Of a DNA stretch of 64,000 nucleotides, positions 1,129 to 48,268 are shown one piece after another (position 1 is the first letter of the stretch; every line of letters begins with the position of its first letter). A program made the position numbers and the translations under genes. Under the pieces are notes generated by a model. That model saw only the letters and a list, made by a program, of their open reading frames with translations, was not told where the DNA came from and did no database searches. The stretch is from contig JBBRSP010000007.1 in the NCBI GenBank assembly GCA_038245295.1, positions 155,185-219,184 on the forward strand, read 5' to 3'. Origin of the DNA: Candidatus Binatia bacterium. Lineage in GTDB: Bacteria > Desulfobacterota > Binatia > HRBIN30.

Positions 1129-2130
1129 TCAAATGATCAACGCGGCCTTGCCGGTGACGCGACGGCCCAGCTGATCGTGCAGGGCGCGCGCCGCATCGGC
1201 GAGCGCATACTCGTGCGGGGCGATGGGCGACAGTTTGCGGTCGCCGATCTGCTGCAACACGTCGCGCAGCAGGGCACGGTTGGCGTCCGGGTCAGACATC
1301 GACCAGGCTCCCCAGTCAACACCGATCACCGATCGATTGCGCAGCAGGATGTGATTGAGCGGCAGACGTGGGATGGGTCCGGCGGCAAACCCGATCACCA
1401 GGAAGCGGCCCCCTGGAGCTAATACACGCAGGCCAACCTCCGAGAGATCACCACCGACGGGATCATACACAACGTCGATGGTTCCCAGCTGGCGAATTCG
1501 ATCCTTCAGATCGCCGGCCGTCGAGTCGATCACCGCATCCGCACCGGCGGCCGCGGCGGCGACGCGTTTCTCCTCTGAGGAAGCGGCGGCGATGACACGT
1601 GCTCCCAACATCTTGCCGACATCGACGGCGGCTAGCCCGACACCGCCGCCGGCCCCGAACACCAGCAGGGTTTCACCAGCGCCGAGGGCGATCCGGCGCG
1701 TCAAAGCGAACCACGCGGTGCAATAACTCTGCATACACGTGGCGGCGCGCGCGAAGTCGAGCTCGGCTGGAATCTTCATCGCTTGCTCGGGGAAGACGGC
1801 GATCTGCTCAGCGAATCCACCAAGCCCCGTCGTCGCCAAGACGCGATCACCGGCGGCAAACGCAGTCACACCGTCACCCACGGCGCTCACAACCCCGGCC
1901 ACTTCGCTGCCGGGCGTAAACGGCAACGGCGGTTTGATCTGGTACTTGCCCATGACAAACAATCCGTCCACGAAGTTGACGCCGGCTGCTTTGACGTTGA
2001 TGAGGATCTGCCCCGGCCGAGCTTCCAGCGCCGGTCGTTCTTCGATCTCGAGGAGATCCGGCGAACCGATCTCCGTGCAAACAACAGCGCGCATGGTGTC
2101 TCTCCTCCTGGCGCGGCTCGTCTCAGGCAA
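1129..2130 (-). CDS. NADPH:quinone oxidoreductase, zinc-binding alcohol dehydrogenase (MDR) superfamily
   Basis: 333 aa. N-terminus MRAVV..GSPDLLEIEE, a GroES-like fold, then a Rossmann GxGxxG motif (VFGAGGGVGLAAV). Typical Qor-like layout. Confidence 0.8.
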   Translation of the reverse strand: MPETSRARRRDTMRAVVCTEIGSPDLLEIEERPALEARPGQILINVKAAGVNFVDGLFVMGKYQIKPPLPFTPGSEVAGVVSAVGDGVTAFAAGDRVLATTGLGGFAEQIAVFPEQAMKIPAELDFARAATCMQSYCTAWFALTRRIALGAGETLLVFGAGGGVGLAAVDVGKMLGARVIAAASSEEKRVAAAAAGADAVIDSTAGDLKDRIRQLGTIDVVYDPVGGDLSEVGLRVLAPGGRFLVIGFAAGPIPRLPLNHILLRNRSVIGVDWGAWSMSDPDANRALLRDVLQQIGDRKLSPIAPHEYALADAARALHDQLGRRVTGKAALII

Positions 2131-2737
2131 GCAGCGGAATCAGCTCAGGGAGTCTGGTGACGCGGATGTCGCCCGGTCCGTGCTCGCCAAAGCCGACAAA
2201 ATGCATGCCCGCCGCCTGCGCCGCCTGTTGATCCGTCGGCGCGTCGCCGACATAGACGGCGCTGCCCGGCGCCACACCCATGGTCTGCAGACAGTGCAGC
2301 AGCATGTCGGGATGCGGTTTTGGGCGCGGCACGTCATTAATCCCGACGACGCATTCGAAGAGCGGCGCCAAACCAAACCGGCGCGCCACTTCGGCCGCGG
2401 TGAAACCTCGGTTAGTCGCCATGGCGAGGCGGTAGCGCGTTCGCAGCTGCGCCAGCGTCGCATGCAGATCGGCCATCGGCTGCATCATTAAGTAAAACGG
2501 CTCGTAGTCGGTGGCCAAGGCGACACGCCGGGCTTCGACGACGCGCTCCCTGTCATCACCAAACAAGCGTTCGAACAACTGCTGTGACGACAACTGGTGT
2601 CCGACACGCTCCAACTCCGCGGTCATCGGCGCGCAGCCGAGCGCGGCCAAGACAGCATTGTAATAGGCGACGTTGGCTGCGAGCGAGTCGAACAGCACCC
2701 CATCGCAATCGAAGATGACCGCCTCGACCTGTTTCAT
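2123..2737 (-). CDS. HAD-IA family hydrolase (phosphoglycolate-phosphatase-like)
   Basis: Begins MKQVEAVIFDCDGVLFDS (DxDG motif I) and carries a C-terminal GDxxxD motif (YVGDAPTDQQAA). The start ATG was confirmed as 'cat' at 2735-2737 and overlaps the upstream gene's stop (ATGA). The Arg-rich 5' extension of the 365-aa track ORF is rejected. Confidence 0.75.
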   Translation of the reverse strand: MKQVEAVIFDCDGVLFDSLAANVAYYNAVLAALGCAPMTAELERVGHQLSSQQLFERLFGDDRERVVEARRVALATDYEPFYLMMQPMADLHATLAQLRTRYRLAMATNRGFTAAEVARRFGLAPLFECVVGINDVPRPKPHPDMLLHCLQTMGVAPGSAVYVGDAPTDQQAAQAAGMHFVGFGEHGPGDIRVTRLPELIPLLA

Positions 2738-3276
2738 CGGCGTGTCGCTTGCGCAGTGCCCTTGTCGATCGGCGCGGGCGGCATCTGCAGTTGCCACAAG
2801 CTGCTGAGCTCGGGATACGTCACGGCAAACCAAAGACCCAGCGGACCGACGACAAACGCCACGAGGCCCGAGAACACACCGAGGGTATCCTTGAGAGTAT
2901 TCGGGTCGTTCATGATGACCGGATACAACAGGACAATCACGACATGGATCAGGAAGAAACCGAGCACGCCCAGACTGGTAGCAATCAGCATGCGGCGCGG
3001 CCGCAACCCTGGTGTGGCTACAATGAGCGCGACAAGCGGCATGAGCGCCATGGAGAGAGCGGTAAGCTGGATCTGCAGCGGCATCTCGATCCCGGCATGG
3101 CGAAAGACTTCCTTGTTCGGACCGTATTCCAGAAACCACCCATTGAGGTACGGGCTCACCACGGCGGCGCACGCCAAGACGGCATTGCGATAGGCGCCGG
3201 CGACATCGACGGCGTGCCACACACCCACCATGACGGCAAAACTTCCGAGGAACAGCAGAGCGAAACGTCCCTTCAT
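2734..3276 (-). CDS. Polytopic membrane protein (about 4 TM helices), translationally coupled to the exosortase-like gene
   Basis: Start MKGRFALLFLGSFAVMV confirmed. Four hydrophobic segments. There is a 4-nt overlap with the upstream ORF end at 3273 and with the HAD gene start. Confidence 0.5.
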   Translation of the reverse strand: MKGRFALLFLGSFAVMVGVWHAVDVAGAYRNAVLACAAVVSPYLNGWFLEYGPNKEVFRHAGIEMPLQIQLTALSMALMPLVALIVATPGLRPRRMLIATSLGVLGFFLIHVVIVLLYPVIMNDPNTLKDTLGVFSGLVAFVVGPLGLWFAVTYPELSSLWQLQMPPAPIDKGTAQATRR

Positions 3277-3755
3277 CGACGCGCCCACTCCACCCAGGTA
3301 ATCGAGTAGAGAGTCACCATCATCAGGAAGATTCCCTGCCACACATACTCGTGGAAGTAGACGAACATCGATGGGTAGTACTCCACGAGTCGTACAAGCG
3401 TGGCGATGCGCAGAATGTTCACCAACGTCAGAGCGACGATGCCGACGGCAATCCCGGCGAGCCGCATGCCCCAACGCGCCGGGTAGGCGACGATGAAACT
3501 GATGAGCACGAAGAAAACGAAAATGCCGGTGCACTCGTGGTTGATGTTCAGGCTCATGCCCTGAACGCTGATGTAGTTCCCGTCCACTATTTGCGCTGGG
3601 CTGCCGGTAAGGCGCGCCAACCACGTTGATGCGGCAGCGATGGATTCTTCGAGCAAACGGAGATGGTTCTGCAGGTCGACGACCACCGCGAAGACGCTGA
3701 AGCCCAGAAGGCATAAGAAGAAGACGGCAGCAAAGCGGCTGATCGAGCGATTCAT
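3273..3755 (-). CDS. Short exosortase/archaeosortase-family-like membrane protein
   Basis: 160 aa, multi-TM. Contains 'NINHECTGIFVF', resembling the exosortase ExCSG nucleophile motif. A downstream 'LVNILRIATL' resembles the conserved N-x-x-R motif of EpsH/XrtA-family proteins. Confidence 0.5.
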   Translation of the reverse strand: MNRSISRFAAVFFLCLLGFSVFAVVVDLQNHLRLLEESIAAASTWLARLTGSPAQIVDGNYISVQGMSLNINHECTGIFVFFVLISFIVAYPARWGMRLAGIAVGIVALTLVNILRIATLVRLVEYYPSMFVYFHEYVWQGIFLMMVTLYSITWVEWARR

Positions 3756-3919
3756 GAAGTGCCGAACCTAGTCGGTGTGGCAACCGGCGGCAAGCGATCA
3801 CCCGCGCCCGCGTACAAACGGTAGGGGTCTAAGCTACAACGTACAGGTGCGCTCCGAAGCGGATGTGAATCTGTTCCCGTCGCAGGGTCGGTAAACACGC
3901 AACAGGATCGTGTGTGAAC

Positions 3920-3950
3920 AAGGGGCGCGGATGGCAAATCCGCGCCCCTT
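3920..3950. promoter_or_regulatory. Perfect 12-bp-stem hairpin (AAGGGGCGCGGA-TGGCAAA-TCCGCGCCCCTT) about 20 nt upstream of the tauE start, in the divergent region shared with the exosortase-like gene
   Basis: Read directly from the sequence as an exact inverted repeat. The loop TGGCAAA resembles the recurrent CAAATGGC octamer family. Confidence 0.5.
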
Positions 3951-3969
3951 TGTGCTCTAGTCCGGCCCA

Positions 3970-4731
3970 ATGTCCGAAGCCCTGGCATGGTTTGGCTTCA
4001 CGCCCGTCGAGGCGTTGGCGGCGACGCTCGTCCTGTTCGTCGCGGCGCTCGTGCGGGGCTTCGGGGGCTTCGGTTTTTCGATGGTGGCCGTGACCGGGAT
4101 GTCGTTGTTCTACCCACCGGCGCACGTCATTCCGATGGTGTTGTTGCTGGAGGTCCTCGCCAGTGTGCACATGCTGCCGAGTACCTGGCGCCATATCGAC
4201 TGGCATTCCCTACGTTGGCTATTGATGGGTGCGCTGATCGCCACACCGCTGGGCGTGTGGGCCCTGGCAATCGCACCGCCCAACGCGATGCGCGCCGTAG
4301 TTTCGCTAGCCGTACTGGTCGGCGCGATCGCCCTGCGCAGCGGTTGGAAACCTCAGCGCGCCCCCAGCAACGGAGAGATTCTGGCCGCCGGTGCGTTATC
4401 CGGCCTTCTCAACGGCGCCGCTTCCATCGGCGGGCCGCCGGTAATTCTCTTCTACTTCTCGTCGCCGGCGGCAATCAGCGTGTCGCGAGCATCCTTAATC
4501 GCCTATTTCATGTTCAGCGACATCATCGCCCTGGGTTGGGGTAGCGTCTTCGGTCTACTCGACGGCAGCGCTGTCTCGAGAGCCTCGCTGCTCGCCATCC
4601 CGGTCGCCGCAGGTATCGCCCTCGGTCAGCACCGCTTCCGCGCAACGGAGGCCGATGCTTTCCGGCGCGCCGTCTTACTCATCCTGATCGTGCTCTCCGC
4701 GCTCGGCGTCGGGCGGGCCCTCCTCGGCTAA
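3970..4731 (+). CDS. Sulfite exporter TauE/SafE family membrane protein (DUF81)
   Basis: 253 aa with two repeated 4-TM halves carrying Gly-rich motifs (GFGGFGFSMVAV; GAASIGGPP). Confidence 0.8.
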   Translation: MSEALAWFGFTPVEALAATLVLFVAALVRGFGGFGFSMVAVTGMSLFYPPAHVIPMVLLLEVLASVHMLPSTWRHIDWHSLRWLLMGALIATPLGVWALAIAPPNAMRAVVSLAVLVGAIALRSGWKPQRAPSNGEILAAGALSGLLNGAASIGGPPVILFYFSSPAAISVSRASLIAYFMFSDIIALGWGSVFGLLDGSAVSRASLLAIPVAAGIALGQHRFRATEADAFRRAVLLILIVLSALGVGRALLG

Positions 4732-5730: not shown

Positions 5731-5775
5731 ATTTTGAAATGTGGCCATTTTCCATTTGGCTATTTCGTCTAGCGA
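5731..5775. repeat. Octamer tandem-repeat array (GCCATTTT/CCATTTGG units) upstream of phzF
   Basis: tttggcaattttgaaatgtggccattttccatttggctattt. Belongs to the same family as the arrays at 23852, 24021, 46136 and 59611. Confidence 0.5.
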
Positions 5776-7259
5776 ACCTGCACATCATATTGGCCGGAGA
5801 CCGACACCAGAGCTCGATAACCGCCTTCGACCGGCACGAGTGTCACCGCACCACCGCCGGTGACGACGGGTGTGCGTTCGCCGCGCGCTGGCACCCAGAG
5901 ATCGAGTGTACCGACGCCTTCGCCCTGGACGCGCATCGTAGCGGCGTCGCCGTCGCTTTCGAGCGACTTGATGTGTCCCGGCGCGGCACGCGGGAACGGG
6001 CGTGAGACGATGGCCGCCCACTCGGGAACCGGCTCAAGGTCGACGTCACCAGGGCAGCTCGAATACAAGAAATGAGTCAGGTGCGACGGCGGCGTCCCGC
6101 CGGTGGAGCCGATGCTGTGTGGATCGCCGCAGGCCTGTTTCCATTGCCACCAGGCACTGCTGATCAGCAGGCGATCCTCTTCGCGCGCGTAGCGGATCAG
6201 GCGCGCCTTGTTATTGCCGGCATCACCGAACCAGCCGTATTCACCGATCCACAGAGTCGTACCGTAGGTGGCGGCGTCCTCGCTCGCACGTGCGAACAGT
6301 TGCTCGATGGTCAGCGAATTCAGACCCGTGATCGATTCGGCGTAGTTGTGAGGCGCATAGACAATGTTGGTGTCATCGGTGAAGGATGGGTCGGGTGCCG
6401 TCCCCGTTACGGGGAAGAGGGCGATCGGCTCGAAGAAGACGATATGCGAAAAGCCACCGGCCTGACGTTCAGCGGTACGAATCGCGTTGATCGCATGCGC
6501 CGAGTACGAGGCCAGCTTCGGCGTGCTGCCGACCAACGCCGCGCCGAAGTGGGGTTCGTTCAGGAGATCATAGCCGGCCACGGCCGGCTCCTTGGCGAAG
6601 TGGGCCGCCACGAATGCCCAGGCATGAACCAGCTCTGTCTGGATACCATCCCGGTCATCGTAGAAACTGGCGAACGCCGTACTGACAGCAGGAGCAAGCT
6701 CCCGCACACCGGCCGAACGGCAGGTGCTACGGTTGTCGGTGATCGTCGCCCACTCCGGCGCGCCATCCCAACCGATCGCCGGCTCGCGACCCGCGGGACA
6801 GGTGGTACCCGGCGGCGAAGCGATATACTTGCCCCACGCGTCCTGGTGCATGTCGAGCACCACGTACACGCCCGCCGCCTTGGCCGTGGCCACGGCCCGA
6901 CGAACCCTTTCCATATACGCCTCGTCGAACTGTCCACGCTGCGGTTCGACCGACGACCAACTGAGAATCAGGCGCACCCCGTTCAGCCCGAACGAGGCCA
7001 TCCGCGGGAGGTCGCGGTCGTTGATCGGAATCACCTGGGGATAGGCCGGGTTGCCCTGGAAATAGTCGCCCAAGGAGTTGAGGTTCATCGAATGCAGCAG
7101 GACCTGGCGACCCTCGCTGTCGAAGATGCCGGGTGCCGCACCGCGCGTCGCATGCAGCGGCAGTAACTCCGGCAAGGCTGTCGAGGAACCCGACTCACCG
7201 TCGTCGCCGCAAGCGGCTAGAAGCAGCAAGAACACGAATAGCAATGAGCGAATGCGCAT
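5769..7259 (-). CDS. Glycoside hydrolase family 5 (cellulase/endoglycoceramidase-like) lipoprotein
   Basis: Signal peptide with a lipobox (MRIRSLLFVFLLLLAACG). The GH5 signatures VVLDMHQD, LLNEP (acid/base) and WIGEYG (nucleophile) are present. Confidence 0.75.
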   Translation of the reverse strand: MRIRSLLFVFLLLLAACGDDGESGSSTALPELLPLHATRGAAPGIFDSEGRQVLLHSMNLNSLGDYFQGNPAYPQVIPINDRDLPRMASFGLNGVRLILSWSSVEPQRGQFDEAYMERVRRAVATAKAAGVYVVLDMHQDAWGKYIASPPGTTCPAGREPAIGWDGAPEWATITDNRSTCRSAGVRELAPAVSTAFASFYDDRDGIQTELVHAWAFVAAHFAKEPAVAGYDLLNEPHFGAALVGSTPKLASYSAHAINAIRTAERQAGGFSHIVFFEPIALFPVTGTAPDPSFTDDTNIVYAPHNYAESITGLNSLTIEQLFARASEDAATYGTTLWIGEYGWFGDAGNNKARLIRYAREEDRLLISSAWWQWKQACGDPHSIGSTGGTPPSHLTHFLYSSCPGDVDLEPVPEWAAIVSRPFPRAAPGHIKSLESDGDAATMRVQGEGVGTLDLWVPARGERTPVVTGGGAVTLVPVEGGYRALVSVSGQYDVQVR

Positions 7260-7409
7260 GGGGCGATCGAAACACAGAGGACCGGATCGATCAATGCGCC
7301 GTCTTCCCGGCGAAGGCCGCAAGCCCGACGCCGAACCGGTGTCCTGAGCGGCTAGTGCAAGGCGGCGCCGCGTTGACTCACGAACGTCGCCCCACTAGCG
7401 TCGGCACCG

Positions 7410-8582
7410 ATGCCCCAAGACGATTTCATCACCCGCGAACTGGCGGCACAGGCTGCCGCCGGGCTCAGCCGGCGCATGCGGACGGTCGATGGGCCACAGG
7501 ACTCGTGGATCACGGTCGAAGGCAAACGGGCGTTGCTCCTGTGCTCCAACAACTACCTTGGCCTGGCCAACCATCCCGCTCTCATCGAAGCATCGCAACG
7601 CGCCGCCGCCGAATTCGGGGTCGGCTCCGGGGCTTCACGACTGATCTCCGGCTCGATGCGTTTGCATCATGATCTCGAGGAACGCCTGGCCGAGTTAAAA
7701 CGGTGCGAACGCGCCTTGCTCTTCACGTCGGGCTATCAGGCAAACATTGGTGTCATCGGCGCCCTGGTCGGCAACAGCGACGCGGTCTTCAGCGATGAGC
7801 TCAATCACGCCAGCTTGATCGACGGCTGTCGCTTGTCGCGCGCTCGGGTGCACATCTATCCGCACTGCGACACCGAGGCGCTGGCCGAGCAACTGCGAAC
7901 CAGCCAGGCACGTCGCAAACTGATCGTCACGGATTCGATCTTCAGCATGGATGGAGACACGGCCCCGTTGCGGAAAATTTGCACGCTCGCCGAGGAGCAT
8001 GACGCGATGGTGTTGGTCGACGAGGCACACGCCACGGGCTGCATCGGGCCACACGGCGCCGGCGTTGTCGCCGCCGAGGGATTGCAGGATCGGGTCACCG
8101 TTCAAATGAGCACGTTGGGCAAGGCGCTCGGCACCTTCGGCGCGTTTGTGGCGGCGCGGCGGCCGATCATTGAACTGTTGGTGAACAAGGCCCGCAGCTT
8201 TATCTTCACCACAGCACTGCCGCCGCCGATCGTGGCAGCCGCTCACGCCGGGCTCGATCTCGCCATTCGCGATGCGCCGCGGCGGCGACAGCTGGCCGAC
8301 AATGCAGCGTTTCTAACGCAGCAACTGCGCCAGAGCGGACTGCCGGTCGGCGAGGGAGCCTGTCACATCTTGCCCGTTCTGATCGGTGACTCGCGCCGCA
8401 CCATGCAGCTCTCGGAGGCACTGCTCGATTCAGGTGTCTTCGTGCAGGGTATTCGACCACCCACCGTGCCCAACGGCACAGCTCGCCTGCGTATCACCGT
8501 AATGGCGACACACACCACCGAAGACCTGCGCTTTGCCGTCAAAATGTTCCAGCGCGCCTTTGCCGCGGAGCAAGCGGCATGA
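7410..8582 (+). CDS. bioF: 8-amino-7-oxononanoate synthase
   Basis: 390 aa. PLP-dependent class II aminotransferase features and a KAPA synthase-like N-terminus. The 4-nt overlap with bioA indicates operon context. Confidence 0.85.
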   Translation: MPQDDFITRELAAQAAAGLSRRMRTVDGPQDSWITVEGKRALLLCSNNYLGLANHPALIEASQRAAAEFGVGSGASRLISGSMRLHHDLEERLAELKRCERALLFTSGYQANIGVIGALVGNSDAVFSDELNHASLIDGCRLSRARVHIYPHCDTEALAEQLRTSQARRKLIVTDSIFSMDGDTAPLRKICTLAEEHDAMVLVDEAHATGCIGPHGAGVVAAEGLQDRVTVQMSTLGKALGTFGAFVAARRPIIELLVNKARSFIFTTALPPPIVAAAHAGLDLAIRDAPRRRQLADNAAFLTQQLRQSGLPVGEGACHILPVLIGDSRRTMQLSEALLDSGVFVQGIRPPTVPNGTARLRITVMATHTTEDLRFAVKMFQRAFAAEQAA

Positions 8583-9940
8583 GTCGCCGCGCCAACCCCG
8601 AAGAGCTGGCGGCGTGGGACCACGCCTATCTGTGGCATCCCTTCACGCAGATGCAGGAGTGGATGGCGCAACCGCCGCTGATCATCGAGCGCGGCGAAGG
8701 GCCCTATCTCTACGACGTGCACGGGCGCCGCTATCTCGATGGTGTGTCGTCGTTGTGGTGCAATGTCCACGGCCACCATCATCCGAAATTGGACGCCGCC
8801 CTTCGAGACCAGTTGGAACGCGTCGCCCACACGACGTTGCTCGGCTTGGCGAGCCCGCCATCCATCGAGTTGGCCAAACGCCTGGTCGAACTGGCACCAC
8901 GCAACCTGACACGCGTCTTCTACTCCGACGCCGGCGCCACGGCAGTCGAAATCGCCCTCAAGATAGCCTTCCAATACCAGCAGCTGCGCGGCGAAACCCA
9001 ACGCACCAGCTTTGCCTCACTGACCGAGGCGTACCACGGCGACACCATCGGGGCGATCAGTGTTGGTTACTCGGAGGCCTTCCATCGTCACTTCAAGCCG
9101 CTGCTCTTCCCCTGCCACAAGCTAAACCCGCCGCATGTCTTTCGCTGGGAGCGGGGCATGGATGAATCCGCCGCTGTCGATGCGGCCGTAGCCGAAGCCG
9201 AGTTGCTGTTACGCGAGCATGGTCACGAACTCGCAGCCCTGATCATCGAGCCGGTGATGCAGGGTGCCGCCGGCATGTGGGTGCAGCCCGCCGGCTACGT
9301 GCGCGCGCTGCGTGATCTGACCCAGCGCCATGACGTGCTGCTGATCTGCGACGAAGTGGCGACGGGCTTCGGCCGCACGGGAACCATGTTCGCCGTGGAG
9401 CAGGACGGCGTCGAGCCCGACCTCCTGTGCGTCGGCAAAGGCATCACCGGGGGATACCTACCCCTGGCCGCCACGTTTGCCAGCGACGAGATCTTTCAAG
9501 CGTTCGTCGCCCCCTACGATCAGTTCAAAACCTTCTTCCACGGCCATACCTACACTGGTAATGCCCTCGCCTGCGCCGTCGCCCTTGCCAACCTCGAGGT
9601 GTTCGAGGAACAACACGTGCTCGCCAACGTGGCTCGCAGGGCGACTCAGGTCGCCGACTACTTACAACACGAAATCAGCACCTTGGATCACGTCGGCGAC
9701 ATCCGACGGGCAGGTCTCATGGTGGGTATCGAACTCGTCAAAGACCGCCGGACCCGCAGCTCCTACGCAACCGCCGAACGCATGGGAATGCAGGTGACCT
9801 ACGAGGCGCGCAAGCATGGCGTAATCCTGCGACCGCTTGGAAATGTGATCATCTTGATGCCGCCGTTGTGCATCACGGAAGCCCAAACGGCCGATCTCTG
9901 CCGGGTCACCCGCGACGCGATCGTCACCACCACCGTCTGA
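8579..9940 (+). CDS. bioA: Adenosylmethionine-8-amino-7-oxononanoate aminotransferase
   Basis: 453 aa. Class III aminotransferase, with WHPFTQM near the N-terminus and a DEVATGFGRTG PLP motif. Confidence 0.9.
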   Translation: MSRRANPEELAAWDHAYLWHPFTQMQEWMAQPPLIIERGEGPYLYDVHGRRYLDGVSSLWCNVHGHHHPKLDAALRDQLERVAHTTLLGLASPPSIELAKRLVELAPRNLTRVFYSDAGATAVEIALKIAFQYQQLRGETQRTSFASLTEAYHGDTIGAISVGYSEAFHRHFKPLLFPCHKLNPPHVFRWERGMDESAAVDAAVAEAELLLREHGHELAALIIEPVMQGAAGMWVQPAGYVRALRDLTQRHDVLLICDEVATGFGRTGTMFAVEQDGVEPDLLCVGKGITGGYLPLAATFASDEIFQAFVAPYDQFKTFFHGHTYTGNALACAVALANLEVFEEQHVLANVARRATQVADYLQHEISTLDHVGDIRRAGLMVGIELVKDRRTRSSYATAERMGMQVTYEARKHGVILRPLGNVIILMPPLCITEAQTADLCRVTRDAIVTTTV

Positions 9941-10101
9941 CAGCCCATACAACTGTCTCAATTTAAGGATAGTGGTGTCGCAATATTTTCCGGATTGCAG
10001 ACATCCCTACAACTGCATGAGGACACCTGCCCATTCGTAACAACCAAACGAACTCCGGCACGGCGCTTGCTGAGTAACACTACAGAGAAAGGAGCCGCAA
10101 A

Positions 10102-10263
10102 ATGCAACTTACCTATCACGAACCGATGCCTGTGCGGCTGGAAGACCGATTCGCTCCCGAACAGACCCGCAATATCCCGTTCCTCGGGTTCGCCACGGCG
10201 ACAGTCCTGAGTGCGGGGATCTGGGCCTGGGTTGTTTGGGCATTTTGGTCGGTTCTCGTCTGA
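10102..10263 (+). CDS. Hypothetical 53-aa single-TM membrane peptide inserted between bioA and bioD
   Basis: A strong Shine-Dalgarno (agagaaaggag) sits 7 nt upstream of the ATG. The product is MQLTYHEPMPVRLEDRFAPEQTRNIPFLGFATATVLSAGIWAWVVWAFWSVLV. It falls below the ORF-track length cutoff. Confidence 0.35.
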   Translation: MQLTYHEPMPVRLEDRFAPEQTRNIPFLGFATATVLSAGIWAWVVWAFWSVLV

Positions 10264-10408
10264 GATCGAAGGTACAATGGTGTCGGGTGTGGCTGCTATG
10301 GCGGCCACCCCGACGACCGTAACAGCCTGAGACCATAACTCCCCCCTCCCCGTTTCCCTTGCCCGAATTACCGGCGTTGCTAATCGTTGCAGCGCGAATC
10401 CCGGGTTC

Positions 10409-11131
10409 ATGGTTTTTAAAAGTCTTTTCGTCACCGGAACCGACACTGGTTCGGGCAAGACTACTGTTTCGTGCGCCATCTTGGCCGCACTAGCCGCGCG
10501 TGGGAAGCGGATCGGTGTGCTCAAGCCGGCCGAAACAGGATGTCTCCGTGGCGCTGACGGCACCCTGATTGCGGAAGACGCTGAGCGGTTGCGTTTCTTT
10601 GCTGGCCTTCAGCAAGATCGACAGAGTGTCTGTCCGTATAAGATGAGCCAACCTCTGGCTCCCGTCGTGGCCGCCGGGTTGGACGGGATTACGATCGACC
10701 CGCAATATATCCGCACCATCCACGACGGCCTGACGGCAACCCACGATCTTACCCTCGTAGAGGGCGCCGGCGGGTTGCTGGTTCCCCTGACAAGCTCGCT
10801 TACGTTTTGTGACTTTGCCGCCGCCTTGCACCTACCGGTTCTCATTGTCGTCGGCTCGAAGCTCGGCTGCATCAATCACGCACTGCTTACCTATCGGGCG
10901 GCGCGTGCCGCCGGATTGCACGTAATCGGGTACGTGATGAATGCTCTCGCCGCGGAGGGCGACCTGTCGAGCCGGACAAACAGCGAAGTCCTCACCCAAT
11001 GGCTGGGCCCACCATTGGGGCACCTGCCGTTTCTCGACACGATTGGGATGGACGAAACGTCACGGGCTCGGCTGGCCGCGGCGGCGGAAGCCAACCTCAC
11101 CCTCGATCAACTCGGAAGTCGTCCTGGCTGA
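10409..11131 (+). CDS. bioD: Dethiobiotin synthetase
   Basis: The N-terminus carries a P-loop (FVTGTDTGSGKTTVS) followed by LKPAETGC. Confidence 0.85.
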   Translation: MVFKSLFVTGTDTGSGKTTVSCAILAALAARGKRIGVLKPAETGCLRGADGTLIAEDAERLRFFAGLQQDRQSVCPYKMSQPLAPVVAAGLDGITIDPQYIRTIHDGLTATHDLTLVEGAGGLLVPLTSSLTFCDFAAALHLPVLIVVGSKLGCINHALLTYRAARAAGLHVIGYVMNALAAEGDLSSRTNSEVLTQWLGPPLGHLPFLDTIGMDETSRARLAAAAEANLTLDQLGSRPG

Positions 11132-15691: not shown

Positions 15692-17158
15692 GTGTCTGCT
15701 CAACGCTTTCAACCGACACTTCGCAGCCTCAAGCGTCATCGTCTGCCGACCTGGTACGACGATGCGAAGTTCGGCATTTTTATCCACTGGAGCGTGTCGT
15801 CGGTTGCCGGCTTCGCGCCGCGCGACAAAGACATCAACGAACAGCTACGCCACAACTACGATAACGCGAACGTCTACATGCCCTACACCGAGTGGTATGA
15901 GAACTCGCTGCGCTTCCCCGAAAGCCCGGTCTCCGAATTCCACCGACGCACCTACGGAGCGCGATCGTACGCGTCACTCGCCGAAGAATTCACCAAGGCC
16001 ATCGACGAACAGTGGGATCCGGTCGCCTGGGCGAAGCACTTCCGCGCCGCCGGCGCGCAGTACGTCGTCTTCGTCACCAAACATCACGACGGCTTTTGCC
16101 TATGGCCAAGCCGGGTCGCCAATCCCCGCAAATCCGGGTGGCACACGCGTCGCGATTGCGTGCGCGAGCTCGCCGACGCCGTGCGCGCCGAAGGCATGCG
16201 GTTCGGCGTCTACTACTCCGGTGGTCTCGATTGGACCTTCGAACCCAGACCGATGCGCACCATGGCCGATGTGCTGGCCGCCGTGCCGCGCGGTGACTAC
16301 CCGGCCTACGCCGAAGCGCAGGTCCGCGAACTAATGGCGCATGTTCAGCCCGACGTCCTGTGGAACGACATCGCCTGGCCGGCAACAGCAAAGGAGCTCT
16401 ACCGCCTGTTCGCCGACTACTATGCCGCAATACCCGACGGCGTGATCAACGATCGCTGGGTGGCATGGTCACAAGTCATGGGCGCTTTTCGCTACCCGAT
16501 CGTCCGTCGCATGTTCGATGCCTACATGCGGCGCAACTTCCGCAGGCCGGATGCCGGCCTGACGCCACCGGGCATTGGCTACTTCGACTACCAGACACCC
16601 GAGTACACCGTGTTCCCCGACGTGCGTCAGCGGAAATGGGAATGTGTGCGCGGCATGGATAAGAGCTTCGGCTTCAACCGCAACTCTCTCCCGGAAGACT
16701 TCATCTCACGCCAGGAATTGATTCACTCGCTCATCGACATCACGGCGAAGAACGGCAATCTCCTGCTGAATGTCGGACCGCGCGGCGAAGACGCAGCTAT
16801 CCCGGACGAGCAAATCACCCGTCTGCGTTGGCTCGGCGAGTGGCTCGGCATCAACGGCGAGGCGATCTACTCGACGCGTCCGTGGACGCTCGCCGGCAGT
16901 CGCAGCGCCGATGGCACCGAGATCCGCTTCACCGCACGCGGACATACTGTCTACGCCATCTTCTTGGGCACGCCACCGGGCGGGCGAGTTGTGGTGTCGT
17001 CCTTGCGGGTAACGCCGACAACTTCGGCACGTCTGCTCGGCGGCGGTGCGTTGACGGTGGAGGGCGGTGAACGCGGGCTGACCATCACTCTACCGGCCCT
17101 GCCGAACAGTCCGGCTCATGTCGTCGCTTTCACCGACGTTGCTTGCGCATCCGTCTAG
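15692..17158 (+). CDS. Alpha-L-fucosidase (GH29)
   Basis: WYDDAKFGIFIHWSV and VVFVTKHHDGFCLWPS are typical of GH29. Confidence 0.8.
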   Translation: MSAQRFQPTLRSLKRHRLPTWYDDAKFGIFIHWSVSSVAGFAPRDKDINEQLRHNYDNANVYMPYTEWYENSLRFPESPVSEFHRRTYGARSYASLAEEFTKAIDEQWDPVAWAKHFRAAGAQYVVFVTKHHDGFCLWPSRVANPRKSGWHTRRDCVRELADAVRAEGMRFGVYYSGGLDWTFEPRPMRTMADVLAAVPRGDYPAYAEAQVRELMAHVQPDVLWNDIAWPATAKELYRLFADYYAAIPDGVINDRWVAWSQVMGAFRYPIVRRMFDAYMRRNFRRPDAGLTPPGIGYFDYQTPEYTVFPDVRQRKWECVRGMDKSFGFNRNSLPEDFISRQELIHSLIDITAKNGNLLLNVGPRGEDAAIPDEQITRLRWLGEWLGINGEAIYSTRPWTLAGSRSADGTEIRFTARGHTVYAIFLGTPPGGRVVVSSLRVTPTTSARLLGGGALTVEGGERGLTITLPALPNSPAHVVAFTDVACASV

Positions 17159-19485
17159 GCGGCGGAACAAGTATCGTGACACCTCCCGACGCTTTCTCAC
17201 GGTATCTTGAGCTTCTCGAACGCAAAGCGCCCCGTCCCCTGTCGATCGATGACATGGTGCGGGCCTTGGCGATCGACGACTACGACCGTCGCACGTTGAA
17301 GAAAGCTCTCGAAGAGCAGGTTTCTCAAAAGCGCCTGCGGCGCATCGGCAAGACACGCTACCAATGGCTGCGCGATGTCGATCGGCCGACGCCAAAGACG
17401 ACGGGAAGCTCGTCGCTGCACCAGCCACGACGCACAAAGCAGCGTGGTAGCAGCCAGCGCATCGAAGGGCGTTTCATCCGCACTCGTTCGGGTTTCTCGT
17501 TCGTCGAGCCACTGACACGACGCGGAGAACAGTTCAGCCGCGACATTCTCATCCCCCTGGGCCTGGAGAAGGGCGCGTTGCATGGAGACCGCGTCGAGGT
17601 GGAGATCACGCGGCGTGACCCGCGGACACGCCGCTGGGTCGGACAAGTCGTCGCCGTCACCGTCGCGGTGCACAGCGAGATTGTCGGAACCTTGGCGAGC
17701 GATCGACGCGGCTGGGTGCTGTTGCCGGAGAATTCCCTCCTGCCACCCATTCGCCTACTTGGCAGTACTCGCCCCGAACCAGCCCAGGAGGGCTTAGTAG
17801 CTCGCGTTCGCCTCACACGCGCCGGATCTGAGCACCAGGAGCCGGGCGGCGAGCTTGATGCGGTACTGGGCGCGGTCGACGATCCGGAAGTTCAGTTCAT
17901 CATCATCACGACGGAGTACGGGCTGCGGGTGGACTTCCCTGATGAGGTCGTCGCCGAGGCGAAGCGATTCCCGGCCGACCCAGCCGAGCCGACAGACTAC
18001 GAACGGCGCGACGACCTGCGCCATCTCCACTTCGTAACCATCGACGGTGAGACGGCGCGCGACTTTGACGATGCCGTCTGCCTAGAATCTCTCCCCACTG
18101 GGGGCAGCCGACTATGGGTCGCGATCGCCGATGTCGCCCACTACATCAGCCCGGGATCGGCACTCGACCTCGAAGCTCTTCGCCGCGGCAACAGTGTCTA
18201 CTTTCCCGATCGTGCCATCCCGATGCTTCCTCACGAGCTGTCGGCCGGCTTGTGCTCACTGATGCCGCAGCGCGACCGGCTCGTGCAGTATGCCGAGATG
18301 GAGTACGACCCAAGTGGTCGACGCAGGTCGGCGCGGTTTGGACGCGGCGTAATTCGCAGCCGCGCTCGCCTGACGTACACCGAAGTGGCGGCGCATCTGG
18401 CCGCGGCGACCAGCGAATCATCCGCCGAGGAGATGTGGCGCGCGCAGCTCAATCCGATGGCGGCATTGATGCGACAACTCCTCACGCATCGCGTCGGCGA
18501 CGGCGCCCTCGATCTGGATTTGCCCGAGGCAGTCGTCGAGCTGTCACCTGAAGGCCGTTGCATTGGTATCGGCGTCGTCGACCGCAACGACGCACACCGG
18601 CTCATCGAGGAGTTCATGCTCGAAGCCAATCGCGCTGTCGCGACGCGGCTGCGCGACAAGGGTTATGCATTGCCTTACCGCGTACATGAGCCACCCGACC
18701 CTGACGACATCGATACGCTGAACGGGTTTCTCCACGCCTTTGGTTTTGCGGTTGAACACGAGCAGGTCGTGCGCCCGGCCGACGTGCAACGGTTACTGCG
18801 CCAACTGGCGCGCCATCCCTTGTCGCGCGTCTTGTCGCGCCACATCCTAAGAGCCCTGGCGAAAGCAAAGTACAGTACCAGCAATGCCGGCCACTTCGGC
18901 CTCGCCTTTCCGATCTATTGTCACTTCACGTCACCGATCCGCCGCTATCCGGATCTACTGGTGCATCGTCAGCTCACCCGTCTACTCCATGGTGAAGCAG
19001 CCGAGGAAGAAGAAACGGCGGTCATCGAAGCGGCATGTGTGCAGAGCTCACAGTGTGAGCGCCAGGCCATGGAAGCCGAGCGCGCCATGACCGATCTGAA
19101 GAAGTGCGAGTTCATGCAGGGGCATCTGCAGGAGCCACACGAGGGAACAATCGTCTCCGTCACCAAGTTCGGTTTCTTCGTTGAGCTCGACGCCTATCCT
19201 GTCGAGGGATTGGTTCGCGTCGCCGATCTGCCCGACGCCTATACCTTCATCGAAGCCGAGCAGATGCTGAAGGGAAGCCGCAAACGCAATCGCTTTCGCG
19301 TTGGCGGTCGGGTCCGCGTCAAGCCAATTGAGGTCTCGCTGCGAACGCGGCAGATCACCCTAGGCTTGATCGAGGACGAGAACGCGGCCGAGGTGCCGAT
19401 CCGTCCGGAACATCGACGCGGCAAGCCGCCAAAACGAGTCGGCAAGCTGCGACGCGGCAAGAACAAGAAGGAGAAGCAGCGATGA
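17143..19485 (+). CDS. rnr: Ribonuclease R (RNase II/VacB family 3'-5' exoribonuclease)
   Basis: RNB catalytic motif HFGLAFPIYCHFTSPIRRYPDLLVHRQL, a C-terminal S1 domain and a basic Lys/Arg tail. The start has a +/-1 nt uncertainty. Confidence 0.85.
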   Translation: MRIRLGGGTSIVTPPDAFSRYLELLERKAPRPLSIDDMVRALAIDDYDRRTLKKALEEQVSQKRLRRIGKTRYQWLRDVDRPTPKTTGSSSLHQPRRTKQRGSSQRIEGRFIRTRSGFSFVEPLTRRGEQFSRDILIPLGLEKGALHGDRVEVEITRRDPRTRRWVGQVVAVTVAVHSEIVGTLASDRRGWVLLPENSLLPPIRLLGSTRPEPAQEGLVARVRLTRAGSEHQEPGGELDAVLGAVDDPEVQFIIITTEYGLRVDFPDEVVAEAKRFPADPAEPTDYERRDDLRHLHFVTIDGETARDFDDAVCLESLPTGGSRLWVAIADVAHYISPGSALDLEALRRGNSVYFPDRAIPMLPHELSAGLCSLMPQRDRLVQYAEMEYDPSGRRRSARFGRGVIRSRARLTYTEVAAHLAAATSESSAEEMWRAQLNPMAALMRQLLTHRVGDGALDLDLPEAVVELSPEGRCIGIGVVDRNDAHRLIEEFMLEANRAVATRLRDKGYALPYRVHEPPDPDDIDTLNGFLHAFGFAVEHEQVVRPADVQRLLRQLARHPLSRVLSRHILRALAKAKYSTSNAGHFGLAFPIYCHFTSPIRRYPDLLVHRQLTRLLHGEAAEEEETAVIEAACVQSSQCERQAMEAERAMTDLKKCEFMQGHLQEPHEGTIVSVTKFGFFVELDAYPVEGLVRVADLPDAYTFIEAEQMLKGSRKRNRFRVGGRVRVKPIEVSLRTRQITLGLIEDENAAEVPIRPEHRRGKPPKRVGKLRRGKNKKEKQR

Positions 19486-22195: not shown

Positions 22196-23851
22196 TTATG
22201 CGACGTCCGGACCCGAGGGGTTGCGGCGGCGGCGAATCTGGCGAATCACGGCGCCGATCTCCTCGCTTCCGAGTGCTCCCTGCACCACCGCATAGGTGGC
22301 GATCCCGGCGGCAACCGCGGCGAAGAGATCTGTTGCCCTGGCGACCAGACCCGGACTCGCTGCCCAGTCGATACAGCCGCTGATGTAGACTACCGGCACA
22401 ACCATCGCGGCCGCTGCAACGGCCGAGCGCCCAAGGGACGGCAGGATCTCACGCAACTCCAGGGTGCCGAGTTTGCCCCGCAGTAACCAGGTCAGCAGGA
22501 TCAGATTCACCGTCGCCGCCAGCGATGTCGACAGCGCCAATCCGGAGTGGCGCAGATCGAAGACCGCCAAATGCTGCGACACCGAAGCAATCATGCCGGC
22601 GACCGGTGAATCGTTGGTGGCAAGAACAGGGCCCATCAAAACGAGACTGAAGATGACATTAGCGACGAAAGCGGCGGCGGCGGTTACCACCGGCGTTCGC
22701 GTGTTCTGCAACGCGTAGAAGGCGGGAATCACCAGACGTACCATCGCGACCGGCCACAATCCTACGGAGAACGCCCCCAGAGCCTGGCCTGTCAGGAGCA
22801 CCTGTGGGTAGCCGAAGGCGCCGCGTTGGAAGAGCACCGAGGTAATCGGCACGGCCAACAGGTAGATGCCTACAGCGGCAGGCATGACGATGAAGTTGGT
22901 GAGACGCATCGCAAAGAGCAGGCTCTGACGCATCTCGTCGAGTGCACCACGCGCCGCTTGCGCCGCGAAGCTCGGCAGGGCTGCGGTTCCCAGGGCAATC
23001 GCAAATACGCCCAGGGGAAACTCGAAGACGCGGTCGGCATACCAGAGATACGACACGCTACCGGTCGGCAACATCGAGGCAAGGATCGTGTCGACCATGA
23101 GGTTGATCTGATAGACGGCGGCGCCGAACACCATCGGCCCCATCAAGCGCATGGTGCGGCGGACCGCGGCGTGTTGAGGATTCCAGATCGGTCGCAGGCG
23201 GACACCGAGTCGGAACATGGCGGGGACCTGCAACAAAAGTTGCGCCACGCCGCCAATCAGAACGCCGGCCGCCAATCCATAGACGGGAGTGCTCAAGCGC
23301 GGCGCGATCAGCAGAATCGAGGCGATCATCGCCAAGTTGAGGAATACCGGCGACAAGGCCGGCGCCGTGAAGTGCCGCAGCGAGTTCAGAATACCGCTAC
23401 ACAGGGCCACCATGCTGACGAGGAAAATGTACGGGAAGCACCAGCGGGTCAGCGAAACAGTGAGCTCATACTTGCCTGCTTCACCGACAAAACCTGGCGC
23501 AAACCAGCTCGTCAGCTGCGGCGAGAAGAGGGTTCCAAGAGCGGTCACGACCGCCAATACCGCGGCCATGAATGTCGCAAGCACAGAGGCCGCCTCGAGG
23601 GCCTCCTCACGCGTGCGGGTGGTCCAATAGTCGGTGAAGACCGGAATGAAGGCCGTGCTCATCGCGCCTTCCGCAACGAAACGTCGCAAGAGATTGGGAA
23701 TACGAAAGGCGACGAAGAAGGCATCGGCGGCAACGCCGGTCCCGAAGTAGTACCCCATCACCGAATCGCGAACCAAGCCGGCGACACGACTCACGAGAGT
23801 AAAGAAGCCAACTGTACCCGCCGCCTTGGCGATCGCGCGGTTCTCACTCAT
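22196..23851 (-). CDS. murJ: Lipid II flippase MurJ (MviN)
   Basis: 552 aa, beginning MSENRAIAKAAGTVGFFTLVSRVAGLVRD, with the FGTGVAADAFFVAFRIPN MurJ signature. Start confirmed as 'cat' at 23849-23851. Confidence 0.85.
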   Translation of the reverse strand: MSENRAIAKAAGTVGFFTLVSRVAGLVRDSVMGYYFGTGVAADAFFVAFRIPNLLRRFVAEGAMSTAFIPVFTDYWTTRTREEALEAASVLATFMAAVLAVVTALGTLFSPQLTSWFAPGFVGEAGKYELTVSLTRWCFPYIFLVSMVALCSGILNSLRHFTAPALSPVFLNLAMIASILLIAPRLSTPVYGLAAGVLIGGVAQLLLQVPAMFRLGVRLRPIWNPQHAAVRRTMRLMGPMVFGAAVYQINLMVDTILASMLPTGSVSYLWYADRVFEFPLGVFAIALGTAALPSFAAQAARGALDEMRQSLLFAMRLTNFIVMPAAVGIYLLAVPITSVLFQRGAFGYPQVLLTGQALGAFSVGLWPVAMVRLVIPAFYALQNTRTPVVTAAAAFVANVIFSLVLMGPVLATNDSPVAGMIASVSQHLAVFDLRHSGLALSTSLAATVNLILLTWLLRGKLGTLELREILPSLGRSAVAAAAMVVPVVYISGCIDWAASPGLVARATDLFAAVAAGIATYAVVQGALGSEEIGAVIRQIRRRRNPSGPDVA

Positions 23852-24070
23852 GGCACTTGGCCATTTTGCCATTTGGCCAAGTGGCCAGGTGGTGGTCTTC
23901 GCGCGCGGCGGGCATTCTGGGTCGGAGCGATTAGCCGTTCGTGAGGCGGAAGACACGGGCCTGCCGAAAACACTCGGTAAGCGCTCTAGGCAAAGGCGTG
24001 CCGCGTTACGGGAACCCCAATCGCCAAATGGCAAATGGCCAAAGGGCCAGGTGGCCAAAGGGCCAAATGG
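23852..24070. repeat. Composite element of two inverted octamer-repeat arrays (23852..23893 GCCATTTG-type; 24021..24070 CAAATGGC-type) flanking a core of about 125 bp. It fills the entire gap between the response-regulator stop and the murJ start.
   Basis: Left array: tggcacttggccattttgccatttggccaagtggccaggtgg. Right array: cgccaaatggcaaatggccaaagggccaggtggccaaagggccaaatggtcag. The arrays are mutually inverted. Confidence 0.55.
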
Positions 24071-45800: not shown

Positions 45801-46127
45801 AGCTTCTACCAGGGCTCGGCGGCGACGCCGGCGCCGACCGTGACGCCGACCGGCACACCGACGATTACGCCGACTCGCACCATCACAGCGACACGCACGG
45901 CGACGCGCACCCGCACGACAACCCGAACGCCGACAGTGACACCGACGGTCAACTACGTGGTCGGCGATGCCAACATCGATGGCGTGCTCGATTACCTCGA
46001 CCTCGACGCCCTCATCCTGACGATCTACGGCGACGTAGATCCGCCACCGGCGCAGGCGGACGTAAACCTCGACGGCCGTGTCGACTCAGGGGACATCATC
46101 GCGCTGCTCATCTTGCTCGGCGGATGA
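42855..46127 (+). CDS. Secreted modular protein: signal peptide, three Cys-rich DCCQ[CF] modules separated by Pro/Thr-rich linkers, an unassigned central domain, a long PT linker, a possible class-I glutamine-amidotransferase-like (ThuA-like) domain, a further PT linker, and a C-terminal type-I dockerin
   Basis: 1090 aa. Signal RRLSLAPP...[21 protein letters not shown]. Cys-rich modules at about aa 60-105, 235-275 and 330-375. Dockerin [12 protein letters not shown]...[12 protein letters not shown] shows the canonical D-x-N-x-D-G-x-x-D-x-x-D loops. Confidence 0.7.
43141..43525 (+). repeat. Low-complexity ACN-CCN (Thr-Pro-Ser) coding repeats of PT linker 1. Similar tracts occur at about 43630-43830, 44506-45175 and 45820-45950.
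   Basis: Tandem acgccgacg/accccgacg-type units. They generate many spurious overlapping ORFs in all frames. Confidence 0.7.
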
Positions 46128-48249: not shown

Positions 48250-48268
48250 CGAGAAACATGGAGGCAGG

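Follow-up and report, generated by a model that had tools for sequence, protein, structure and literature searches.

A putative two-gene exosortase H-type sorting module in the uncultured class Binatia

The window, i.e., the whole 64-kb stretch of Candidatus Binatia bacterium DNA analyzed here, carried three consecutive genes, designated A, B, and C, on its reverse strand (Table 1). The stop codon TGA of gene A overlapped the ATG of gene B as ATGA, and the stop of gene B overlapped the ATG of gene C in the same manner. The same three genes were called by an independent gene caller in the public copy of the contig, and the layout described in a first-pass annotation of the window, with three ORFs and two ATGA overlaps, was reproduced at every position. 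The promoter of an A-B-C operon is presumed to lie in the gap that separates gene A from the TauE-family gene; this assignment follows from its position only, as a scan for the sigma-70 consensus returned no site there. No sigma-70-like sites were found in the interval 1900..4100, and terminator-like sites in this interval were no commoner than in shuffled sequences.

Table 1. Features of the A-B-C locus (window coordinates).
Feature	Coordinates	Strand	Description
Gene A	3273..3755	-	160-aa short-form exosortase/archaeosortase-family protein, XrtH-like
Gene B	2734..3276	-	180-aa hydrophobic membrane protein, probable XrtH_assoc lineage
Gene C	2123..2737	-	204-aa HAD-IA family phosphatase, DxDG motif
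Intergenic region	3756..3969		214 bp separating gene A from the TauE-family gene; presumed promoter region, by position only
TauE-family gene	3970..4731	+	Divergent from gene A

The product of gene A, currently annotated simply as "exosortase/archaeosortase family protein", scored 52.9 bits with the TIGR04178 model (cutoff of 23) and 45.1 bits with PF09721 (cutoff of 25.7), the latter alignment covering profile positions 103–251 of 254. Judged by these profile matches, A is a genuine exosortase/archaeosortase-family protein of the short-form type, in agreement with the first-pass annotation, which had recognized it as exosortase-like and considered a minimal variant. Both objections that the same annotation had foreseen, the lack of a significant exosortase match and membership in an unrelated family such as CPBP proteases, fall away, since the match was significant and neither the CPBP intramembrane protease nor any other protease family was among the Pfam matches of A or B at E≤1. 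Its premise that about 160 aa is unusually short for such an enzyme was mistaken: profile lengths of 150–174 aa were found in at least ten curated subfamilies (XrtH, XrtX, XrtY, XrtM, XrtF, XrtP, ArtB, ArtD, ArtE, and pacearchaeosortase).

The best subfamily match of A was XrtH (TIGR04177), with 75.4 bits, under the curated cutoff of 86. The alignment ran end to end (positions 2–155), and A resembles XrtH both in length (160 aa vs. a 158-position profile) and in the presence of the Cys, Arg, and His residues. The next-best subfamily scores were those of XrtX (65.9 bits) and ArtB (57.7 bits); the ArtA model gave a weak match (24.1 bits vs. a cutoff of 75), and neither TIGR02602 nor XrtA was present among the HMM matches at E≤1. 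Members of the paralog clades scored 56.6–77.5 bits with the XrtH model (cutoff of 86), and some of them scored higher with ArtB, which was their top match. Because A stays below the XrtH cutoff and some of its paralogs prefer ArtB, we regard A as only XrtH-like and its sorting signal as likewise putative. A total of 272 homologs of A were found; the best 120 of the 272 were 61–71% identical to it and mostly 159–161 aa long. As far as sampled, the clade was confined to Binatia MAGs.

Three motifs were identified in A: HECTG at residues 73–77, NILRI at residues 113–117, and FHEY, bearing His135. Cys75, Arg116, and His135 were invariant in the alignment of homologs (26/26) and were retained throughout three paralog groups; from their conservation, these residues (in HECTG, NILRI, and FHEY, respectively) are the catalytic candidates of A. 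HECTG and NILRI had been pointed out in the first-pass annotation, and with the HMM cutoffs passed and the three residues invariant, they are not a chance occurrence. A sortase-like Cys/Arg/His triad is conserved in archaeosortases, and mutants of ArtA confirmed the predicted active-site residues (PMC6098224). In the AF2 model of A (pLDDT of 87.7), four long hydrophobic helices, predicted to be transmembrane (TM), were accompanied by a periplasmic helix and a three-stranded sheet. According to the positive-inside rule, applied to the AF2 model and the sequence, Cys75, Arg116, and His135 are predicted to lie near the outer ends of the helices. No solved structures matched A at E≤1 in a profile search of PDB sequences, and a Foldseek search of the model against the PDB gave only insignificant helical-bundle matches (best E of 0.38).

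Gene B is annotated at present as "hypothetical protein". We failed to find any Pfam or NCBIfam match to the window's own B at E≤1, and NF041730 (XrtH_assoc) gave no match even at E≤10. This family was, at the same time, matched by 4 of 22 diverse B homologs, the best of them over its full length with 36.1 bits (cutoff of 35), while another homolog reached 24.5 bits against the same cutoff. The Pfam family PF28117 (XrtH_assoc) was found among the precomputed annotations of relatives of B, and B itself was tied to the NF041730-matching homologs by profile and alignment. By this link, which is transitive via homologs, B would probably belong, as a divergent representative, to the lineage of the "exosortase H-associated membrane protein". 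The system of XrtH with NF041730/PF28117 has the same arrangement as A and B, a partner membrane gene for about 180 aa lying immediately downstream. The pairing of A and B is not unusual, as divergent relatives of B match the exosortase H-associated family.

The AF2 model of B (pLDDT of 92.7) was that of a four-helix membrane protein. The models of A and B consisted of nine identically arranged elements (two helices, three strands, a short helix, another helix, and two long helices), and an invariant A-[YT]-P closed helix 2 in both families. Comparison of A with B by hhalign gave P=0.0012, with a probability of 67.7% when secondary structure was included and 19.5% when it was not; the reversed-sequence control gave P=0.4–0.8. 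In cross-family hmmsearch, the best per-sequence P values were 9e-6 and 4.9e-5. These comparisons point weakly to homology of A and B at the sequence level. The catalytic residues of exosortase were absent from B. Since the secondary-structure elements of B follow one another as they do in A and these residues are missing, the models suggest that B is probably an inactive paralog of A, acting as its partner.

A different relationship had been proposed in the first-pass annotation, namely a split exosortase; on this reading, A and B would be halves of an eight-TM EpsH-type enzyme, with B providing the missing N-terminal helices. The restriction of the PF09721 alignment of A to positions 103–251 of 254 and the total of about eight predicted TM helices in A and B together are in line with this proposal, and with B placed before A, the PF09721 alignment reached back to profile position 28. 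However, the score then fell from 45.1 bits for A alone to 31.9 bits, which means that adding B weakens the exosortase match, and B alone matched no exosortase model at E≤1. Moreover, the order of secondary-structure elements in B, including the periplasmic three-stranded sheet, duplicates that of A instead of complementing it; the order of the genes is A then B; and stand-alone exosortase subfamilies of 150–175 aa are well established. HMM searches with B, B+A, and A+B gave no support to the split, and the predicted fold of B repeats that of A; we consider the proposal to have largely failed and this origin of the pair to be very improbable.

B might also be regarded as a dedicated substrate of A, carrying an internal sorting signal that is cut mid-protein, as proposed for the "midcut-by-XrtH protein". 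Residues 66–95 of B are indeed arranged like a sorting signal (LQ-L-T/P-A-L-S-M-A/G, a hydrophobic helix, and a basic RPRR), most B homologs possess the motif L-P-A-L-S-x-G, resembling I-P-T-L-S-E-W-G, and the name of the NCBIfam family NF033207 implies mid-protein cleavage by XrtH. However, NF033207 was matched by none of the B homologs, NF041730 being matched instead. In the high-confidence model (pLDDT as above), B is a compact four-helix bundle, in which the segment in question is an integral helix equivalent to the Cys-bearing helix 2 of A; owing to this equivalence, the signal-like segment is better explained by paralogy with A. A role of B as a substrate is, in our opinion, quite improbable, and B is treated below as the probable inactive paralog and partner of A.

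The pair was well conserved. According to tblastn, A was followed directly by B in 38 of the 42 related Binatia loci, across three paralog groups, and three of the four remaining loci had a called B-type ORF in this position. In most loci, the start of B overlapped the stop of A by at least 4 nt. Up to two paralogous A-B pairs per genome were present among the genomes sampled. In high-GC loci, several B genes were mis-called as wrong-frame ORFs and were left out of the alignments; the presence of B in these loci was taken from tblastn. Coupling of A to a second membrane gene, noticed in the first-pass annotation, is therefore a conserved property of these loci. Genes related to envelope lipids were also found beside A-B in close relatives: 11 loci had a gene for an MsbA-like exporter, and 5 had one for Lnt.

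Gene C scored 99.8 bits with PF13419 (HAD_2) and 55.6 bits with TIGR01509 (cutoff of 29.4) and contained the motif FDCDGV at residues 9–14. Specific equivalogs were all far under their cutoffs (e.g., phosphoglycolate phosphatase, 84.3 vs. 180), and the best solved relative was 4rn3, described as "HAD superfamily hydrolase". Gene C encodes, in this respect, a generic soluble HAD-IA enzyme without a membrane anchor. Among the 23 informative close loci, a HAD homolog adjoined A-B in 11, being convergent in 2 of these, and was absent from the other 12; it was likewise absent from all loci of two paralog clades. In the loci L002 and L013, it was encoded on the opposite strand; in L002, it overlapped the stop of an adenylate-cyclase-type gene and hence belongs to another operon. 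The window, L048, and L050 had the order A-B-HAD in common despite wholly different flanking genes. The HAD phosphatase is an accessory neighbor in one subclade, outside the conserved core. Of the three-gene synteny, suggested for inspection in the first-pass annotation, the A-B part was conserved and the HAD part patchy; similarly, the phosphatase, regarded there as an unusual partner enzyme, is joined to B by an ATGA overlap in the window and is not a general partner, being restricted to one subclade.

The three genes could nevertheless form a functional triad, in which the HAD enzyme makes or recycles the acceptor, e.g., through dephosphorylation of a head group of the phospholipid or sugar-phosphate type; in that case, the cassette would comprise an exosortase system together with an enzyme supplying its acceptor. 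The ATGA shared by B and C is a sign of translational coupling, and the persistence of the order A-B-HAD among differing flanks and the envelope-lipid neighbors of A-B in close relatives speak for such a role. Lipid attachment of ArtA substrates, which also fits it, has been established in haloarchaea (PMC6098224; PMC7157517). However, the gene is missing from 12 of the 23 informative close loci and from both paralog clades, it lies on the opposite strand in two loci and in a different operon in one of them, and its product is a generic soluble enzyme with neither a membrane anchor nor a specific equivalog. We consider a functional triad unlikely and retain A and B as the core.

Tripartite C-terminal tails (motif, hydrophobic helix, and basic cluster) were not found among all ORFs of the 64-kb window, and P-x-L-x-x-[WFY]-G motifs and internal motif-helix-basic elements occurred in window ORFs only in ordinary membrane proteins. 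These scans of every ORF agree with the first-pass annotation, which had seen no sorting tail in the window. Sorting-signal proteins of PEP-CTERM/PGF-CTERM systems are usually scattered across the genome (PMC6098224), so the lack of a substrate within 64 kb is expected. In the loci of relatives, IPTL-like tripartite tails were identified on three secreted proteins, starting 2.4–8.5 kb from the end of A, and these three were the total in about 0.7 Mb of the relatives' DNA. The best tail scored 15.6 bits with IPTL_CTERM (cutoff of 20.5) and 19.1 bits with the midcut-by-XrtH model, all three being below curated cutoffs; one of the three proteins possessed a choice-of-anchor C domain. The sorting signal would likely resemble IPTLxxWG-CTERM, roughly [VA]-P-x-hydrophobic-[ST]-x-x-G.

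The occurrence of IPTL-like tails near A-B in three relatives recalls the XrtH/IPTL-CTERM system (TIGR04174). The locus differs from the XrtH system in the subcutoff score of A, the lack of an NF041730 match for the window's B, and the tails scoring below the IPTL_CTERM cutoff, as well as in the unusually high conservation of the Binatia clade (61–71% identity), its confinement to Binatia MAGs as far as sampled, the presence of up to two A-B pairs per sampled genome, and the HAD gene appended in one subclade. The minimal architecture of about 150–175 aa is common to A and to ArtB (TIGR04144, VPXXXP-CTERM), XrtX, XrtY, XrtM, XrtF, and ArtE; unlike these short forms, A scores far under their cutoffs (150–170 bits), and no VPXXXP-type tail, as expected for ArtB, was seen here. 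A partner protein associated with its system is implied for XrtF, too, by the NCBIfam names. To our knowledge, none of the short-form exosortases, XrtH included, has been studied experimentally, and our literature search revealed no paper naming both exosortase and XrtH.

With the canonical eight-TM EpsH/XrtA, A has the superfamily and the catalytic core in common (PF09721 positions 103–251), whereas the N-terminal region of about 100 residues is absent from A. Neither a PEP-CTERM protein nor EpsI or an exopolysaccharide locus, belonging to the EpsH/XrtA type (TIGR02602, TIGR03109), was encoded in the window. ArtA from Haloferax volcanii was the sole superfamily member with experimental data found in our literature search. 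Its predicted catalytic residues are the same as those of A, and the reaction presumed for A is also that of ArtA: removal of a motif-helix-basic tail and subsequent covalent anchoring (PMC6098224). Unlike A, ArtA is an archaeal protein of about 300 aa, recognizes PGF-CTERM, and has no partner of the XrtH_assoc type. Bacterial exosortases had not been experimentally analyzed according to a 2018 review (PMC6098224).

We find it likely that A and B constitute a two-gene exosortase H-type protein-sorting module, belonging to a Binatia-specific clade. The enzyme would be A, a four-helix membrane cysteine transpeptidase/protease, with Cys75, Arg116, and His135 predicted close to where helices 2, 3, and 4, respectively, end on the periplasmic side. 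By analogy with archaeosortase A, it may recognize secreted proteins with a C-terminal tail in which a short motif is followed by a hydrophobic helix and a cluster of basic residues, remove this tail, and hand the protein to an envelope acceptor, its putative chemistry being extrapolated from ArtA. B would be translated together with A and probably has the same fold minus the catalytic residues; most likely, it would serve as the non-catalytic subunit of A, functioning as a scaffold or in substrate or acceptor binding. The formation of a complex by A and B, the signal recognized, the chemistry of cleavage and transfer, and the acceptor are all inferences. The HAD phosphatase would be co-transcribed in this lineage, and its role, if any, would be accessory.

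The A-B pairing, the short length of A, and the absence of a nearby substrate are expected for such systems, and the finding mainly improves annotation. The new point is that a conserved exosortase partner seems to be a paralog of the enzyme that has lost activity. A bolder and doubtful generalization is that XrtH-type mini exosortases are obligate heterodimers of an active A and its dead paralog B, forming an eight-helix pseudo-symmetric machine, with the HAD enzyme recruited in one Binatia subclade to prepare the acceptor. If this were true, the families annotated as "associated membrane protein" next to several short exosortases would consist of pseudoenzyme subunits, and the cassette of the window would represent a compact three-gene system for identifying the acceptor of a bacterial exosortase. 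Exosortase biochemistry is poorly known; the locus adds a well-conserved, Binatia-specific, short XrtH-like clade, unnamed by current curated models, and its partner, probably an inactive paralog, suggests how four-helix exosortases might work.

The exosortase-like membrane gene (A), the second membrane gene (B), and the HAD phosphatase gene (C) were consecutive on the minus strand of the window, with ATGA overlaps joining the TGA stop of A to the ATG of B and the TGA stop of B to the ATG of C. An independent gene call on the public copy of the same contig gave identical genes, in agreement with the first-pass annotation. The two motifs reported for A were also present, HECTG at residues 73-77 and NILRI at residues 113-117.

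Coordinates of genes and predicted structural elements (L handles, related loci from other genomes, with coordinates within each locus; distance, from the end of A to the near end of the tailed gene)
Feature	Position	Strand	Size	C-terminal tail	Distance
A	window 3273..3755	-	160 aa
B	window 2734..3276	-	180 aa
C	window 2123..2737	-	204 aa
Alpha-L-fucosidase	window 15692-17158
RNase R-like	window 17143-19485
MurJ	window 22196-24058
PhoD	window 36029-37375
Tailed protein	L011 13869-15332		487 aa	APALTPWG + helix + RR	3.4 kb
Tailed protein	L027 5366-5893	-	175 aa	VPAMSAAG + helix + RRR	2.4 kb
Tailed protein, choice-of-anchor C domain	L025 18917-19567		216 aa	VPVASTGG + helix + RSRRR	8.5 kb
Helix 1	A 3-25; B 2-22
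Helix 2	A 28-49; B 25-44
Three strands	A 55-70; B 48-66
Short helix	A 73-76; B 71-75
Helix after short helix	A 78-90; B 78-86
First long helix	A 95-126; B 93-123
Second long helix	A 128-159; B 127-152

Protein A exceeded the curated cutoffs of both the exosortase/archaeosortase signature TIGR04178 (52.9 bits, cutoff 23) and Pfam PF09721 (45.1 bits, cutoff 25.7), confirming its proposed family membership. The PF09721 alignment covered only profile positions 103-251 of 254; therefore, what A matches is the C-terminal, catalytic portion of the long exosortases. Its shortness, contrasted with canonical exosortases in the first-pass annotation, is ordinary: the top subfamily matches (XrtH, XrtX, ArtB, XrtM, ArtE, XrtY, and XrtF) were all short, with profile lengths of 150-174. 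The closest was XrtH (exosortase H), aligned end to end with 75.4 bits; since this is below the curated cutoff of 86, A is, judging by sequence, a relative of XrtH outside its certified membership. A protein search yielded 272 homologs of A, the best 120 of which had 61-71% identity and were mostly 159-161 aa long; those of them with a name were all labelled "exosortase/archaeosortase family protein".

Cys75, Arg116, and His135 of A were invariant in an alignment of 26 homologs. Sortase-like catalytic residues are conserved across archaeosortases and were confirmed in ArtA by mutation (PMC6098224); the three residues of A correspond to them. The AlphaFold model of A was confident (pLDDT 87.7); in order, it comprised two helices, a three-stranded sheet, a short Cys-bearing helix, and three more helices. 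No solved structure resembling A was found by comparison of either sequence or fold.

When one genome per species was scanned with patterns built from the motifs of the A family itself, 42 loci were recovered, a range that holds for such loci only. Most were titled Candidatus Binatia, the remainder having other or unspecific titles (e.g., Deltaproteobacteria, Myxococcales, Terriglobales). Identity to A was 55-68% in the close paralog group (plus one intermediate locus at 51%), about 42-53% in the second, and 37-40% in the third; several single genomes contained two copies from different groups.

Gene B was the constant companion of A. A B homolog was detected by tblastn immediately after A in 38 of the 42 loci, with all three groups represented, and a B-type ORF was called there in three of the other four (L036, L042, and L046); in the fourth, L037, the call was ambiguous. 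In most loci, the B start codon overlapped the A stop by at least 4 nt. The window's B had no Pfam or NCBIfam match, and nearly all of its 106 database homologs were unnamed or "hypothetical protein". Among 22 diverse B homologs scanned singly, four hit the NCBIfam family "exosortase H-associated membrane protein" (NF041730), with a top score of 36.1 bits (cutoff 35) over the full length. Many relatives from a B-alignment profile search bore the precomputed Pfam PF28117, named XrtH_assoc in a neighbourhood listing. These matches indicate that B belongs, as a divergent member, to a family whose pairing with exosortase H is already recognised.

The suggestion that B is the missing half of a split exosortase was rejected: B alone matched no exosortase model, fusing it before A lowered the PF09721 score from 45.1 to 31.9 bits, and fusing it after A left the aligned region unchanged. 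On balance, we favor B as a catalytically inactive paralog of A, going by predicted structures and profile comparisons. The AlphaFold model of B was very confident (pLDDT 92.7), and the two models shared nine elements, identical in order and closely matched in position; the fifth element closes with an invariant A-[YT]-P in both families (A90-Y91-P92 in A, A87-T88-P89 in B). The profile-profile alignment was collinear over 105-146 columns (P = 0.0012), with a probability of 67.7% with secondary structure and 19.5% without; a control with reversed B gave P = 0.4-0.8, so the signal is not due to composition alone. Cross-family hmmsearch gave best per-sequence P values of 9e-6 and 4.9e-5, and two B homologs weakly matched exosortase O and pacearchaeosortase (E about 0.008). 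At the places equivalent to the catalytic residues of A, B had no conserved Cys, Arg, or His.

Protein C was a generic HAD-IA hydrolase with the nucleophile motif FDCDGV; it fell short of every specific equivalog, and the closest relative with a solved structure was an uncharacterised "HAD superfamily hydrolase". A C homolog adjoined A-B in 11 of the 23 informative close-group loci (nine co-directional, two opposite, L002 and L013) and in none of the second or third group. In L002, the HAD start overlaps an adenylate-cyclase/AAA_16 stop, which places the HAD gene of this locus in the operon of the cyclase gene. The A-B-HAD order was kept in the window, L048, and L050 despite different flanking genes throughout, but the linkage was patchy elsewhere; therefore, the link of the HAD gene to A-B is real inside one subclade, yet outside the conserved core.

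A gene for a zinc-ribbon/guanylate-cyclase/AAA_16 protein (1141 aa; L001 9702-13127) occurred near A-B in seven close-group loci, some of which lack the HAD gene. The window, one of the seven, begins within the C-terminal part of this gene (2-1108, +); it is the 3' end of the gene that overlaps the HAD start in L002. An MsbA-like ABC exporter (500 bits, under the MsbA cutoff of 602) was directly upstream in 11 close-group loci, and apolipoprotein N-acyltransferase Lnt, passing its equivalog cutoff, was nearby in five. A 1370-aa gene without a Pfam match was divergently upstream of A-B in L002 (5662-9774, -) and L003; a scan of the L002 protein found no tripartite tail. The third group (L036-L046, L047), whose A-B pair is most similar to curated XrtH_assoc, lay in a conserved block. 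Upstream, on the opposite strand, were the cytochrome-c maturation genes CcmE/CcmF/CcmH; downstream, on the strand of the pair, came a radical-SAM gene and then one or two NosD/beta-helix proteins. No L047 beta-helix protein had a sorting tail.

As the first-pass annotation had stated, ORF scans of the 64 kb window gave no substrate with a C-terminal motif-helix-basic tail. Such tails were present on three secreted proteins from the relatives' loci, which total about 0.7 Mb. In isolation, the tails scored up to 15.6 bits against IPTL_CTERM (TIGR04174, cutoff 20.5) and up to 19.1 bits against the sorting-signal-like part of "midcut-by-XrtH", which is compatible with XrtH-like specificity, short of establishing it.

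Among other window genes, 42855-46127 (+) encoded a 1090-aa predicted secreted protein without a Pfam match, in which long linkers rich in Thr, Pro, and Ser occur together with repeated Cys-rich "CCQ" modules and the C-terminus resembles a dockerin (DANIDGVLD...); its codon usage accounts for the skews at 42-46 kb, strongly negative for GC and positive for AT. Similar repeats ended a 726-aa protein (L047 17514-19691), and similar PT-rich linkers occurred in the IPTL-tailed L011 protein. A 187-aa membrane protein (48131-48694, +; no Pfam match) had the C-terminal segment HWWIDMPGVYAPAIVLSLV with a basic end, conserved as HWLIDLPGVFLPAIVLAVL in L010 (7003-7392, -), where the gene lies 3.2 kb beyond A in the downstream direction and on the other strand. 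The protein has the look of an integral membrane protein, not of a sorted substrate. Ordinary neighbours (7410-11131, +; 5769-7322, -) included Aminotran_1_2, Aminotran_3, and 240-aa (10409-11131) genes, which may be the biotin-synthesis genes bioF/bioA/bioD; a secreted GH5-type cellulase-family protein was another ordinary window neighbour. The alpha-L-fucosidase, RNase R-like, MurJ, and PhoD genes listed above are likewise ordinary.

The analysis establishes the family of A, the conservation of its catalytic residues, its coupling to B, and the tie of B to XrtH_assoc; from there we infer an A-B complex, its sorting signal, chemistry, and acceptor as follows. A would be a membrane cysteine transpeptidase/protease that cuts an IPTL-like C-terminal anchor off exported proteins and hands the trimmed proteins to an envelope acceptor. 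B, co-translated, would serve as a non-catalytic paralogous subunit, and the HAD protein as an accessory enzyme in one lineage.

The nearest known system, by both working and kinship, is the XrtH/XrtH-associated-protein pair curated in NCBIfam and Pfam, from which A differs in falling under the XrtH score cutoff. Because of this, the A-B system is best classed in the exosortase/archaeosortase superfamily next to XrtH, as a sister clade without a subfamily assignment. For systems of this type, a short enzyme, a second membrane gene paired with it, and no substrate nearby are all normal. What is new are the highly conserved clades, specific to Binatia as far as sampled and without a name in current models, the indication from models and sequence that partner B may be a dead paralog of enzyme A, and the addition of a HAD gene in one subclade.
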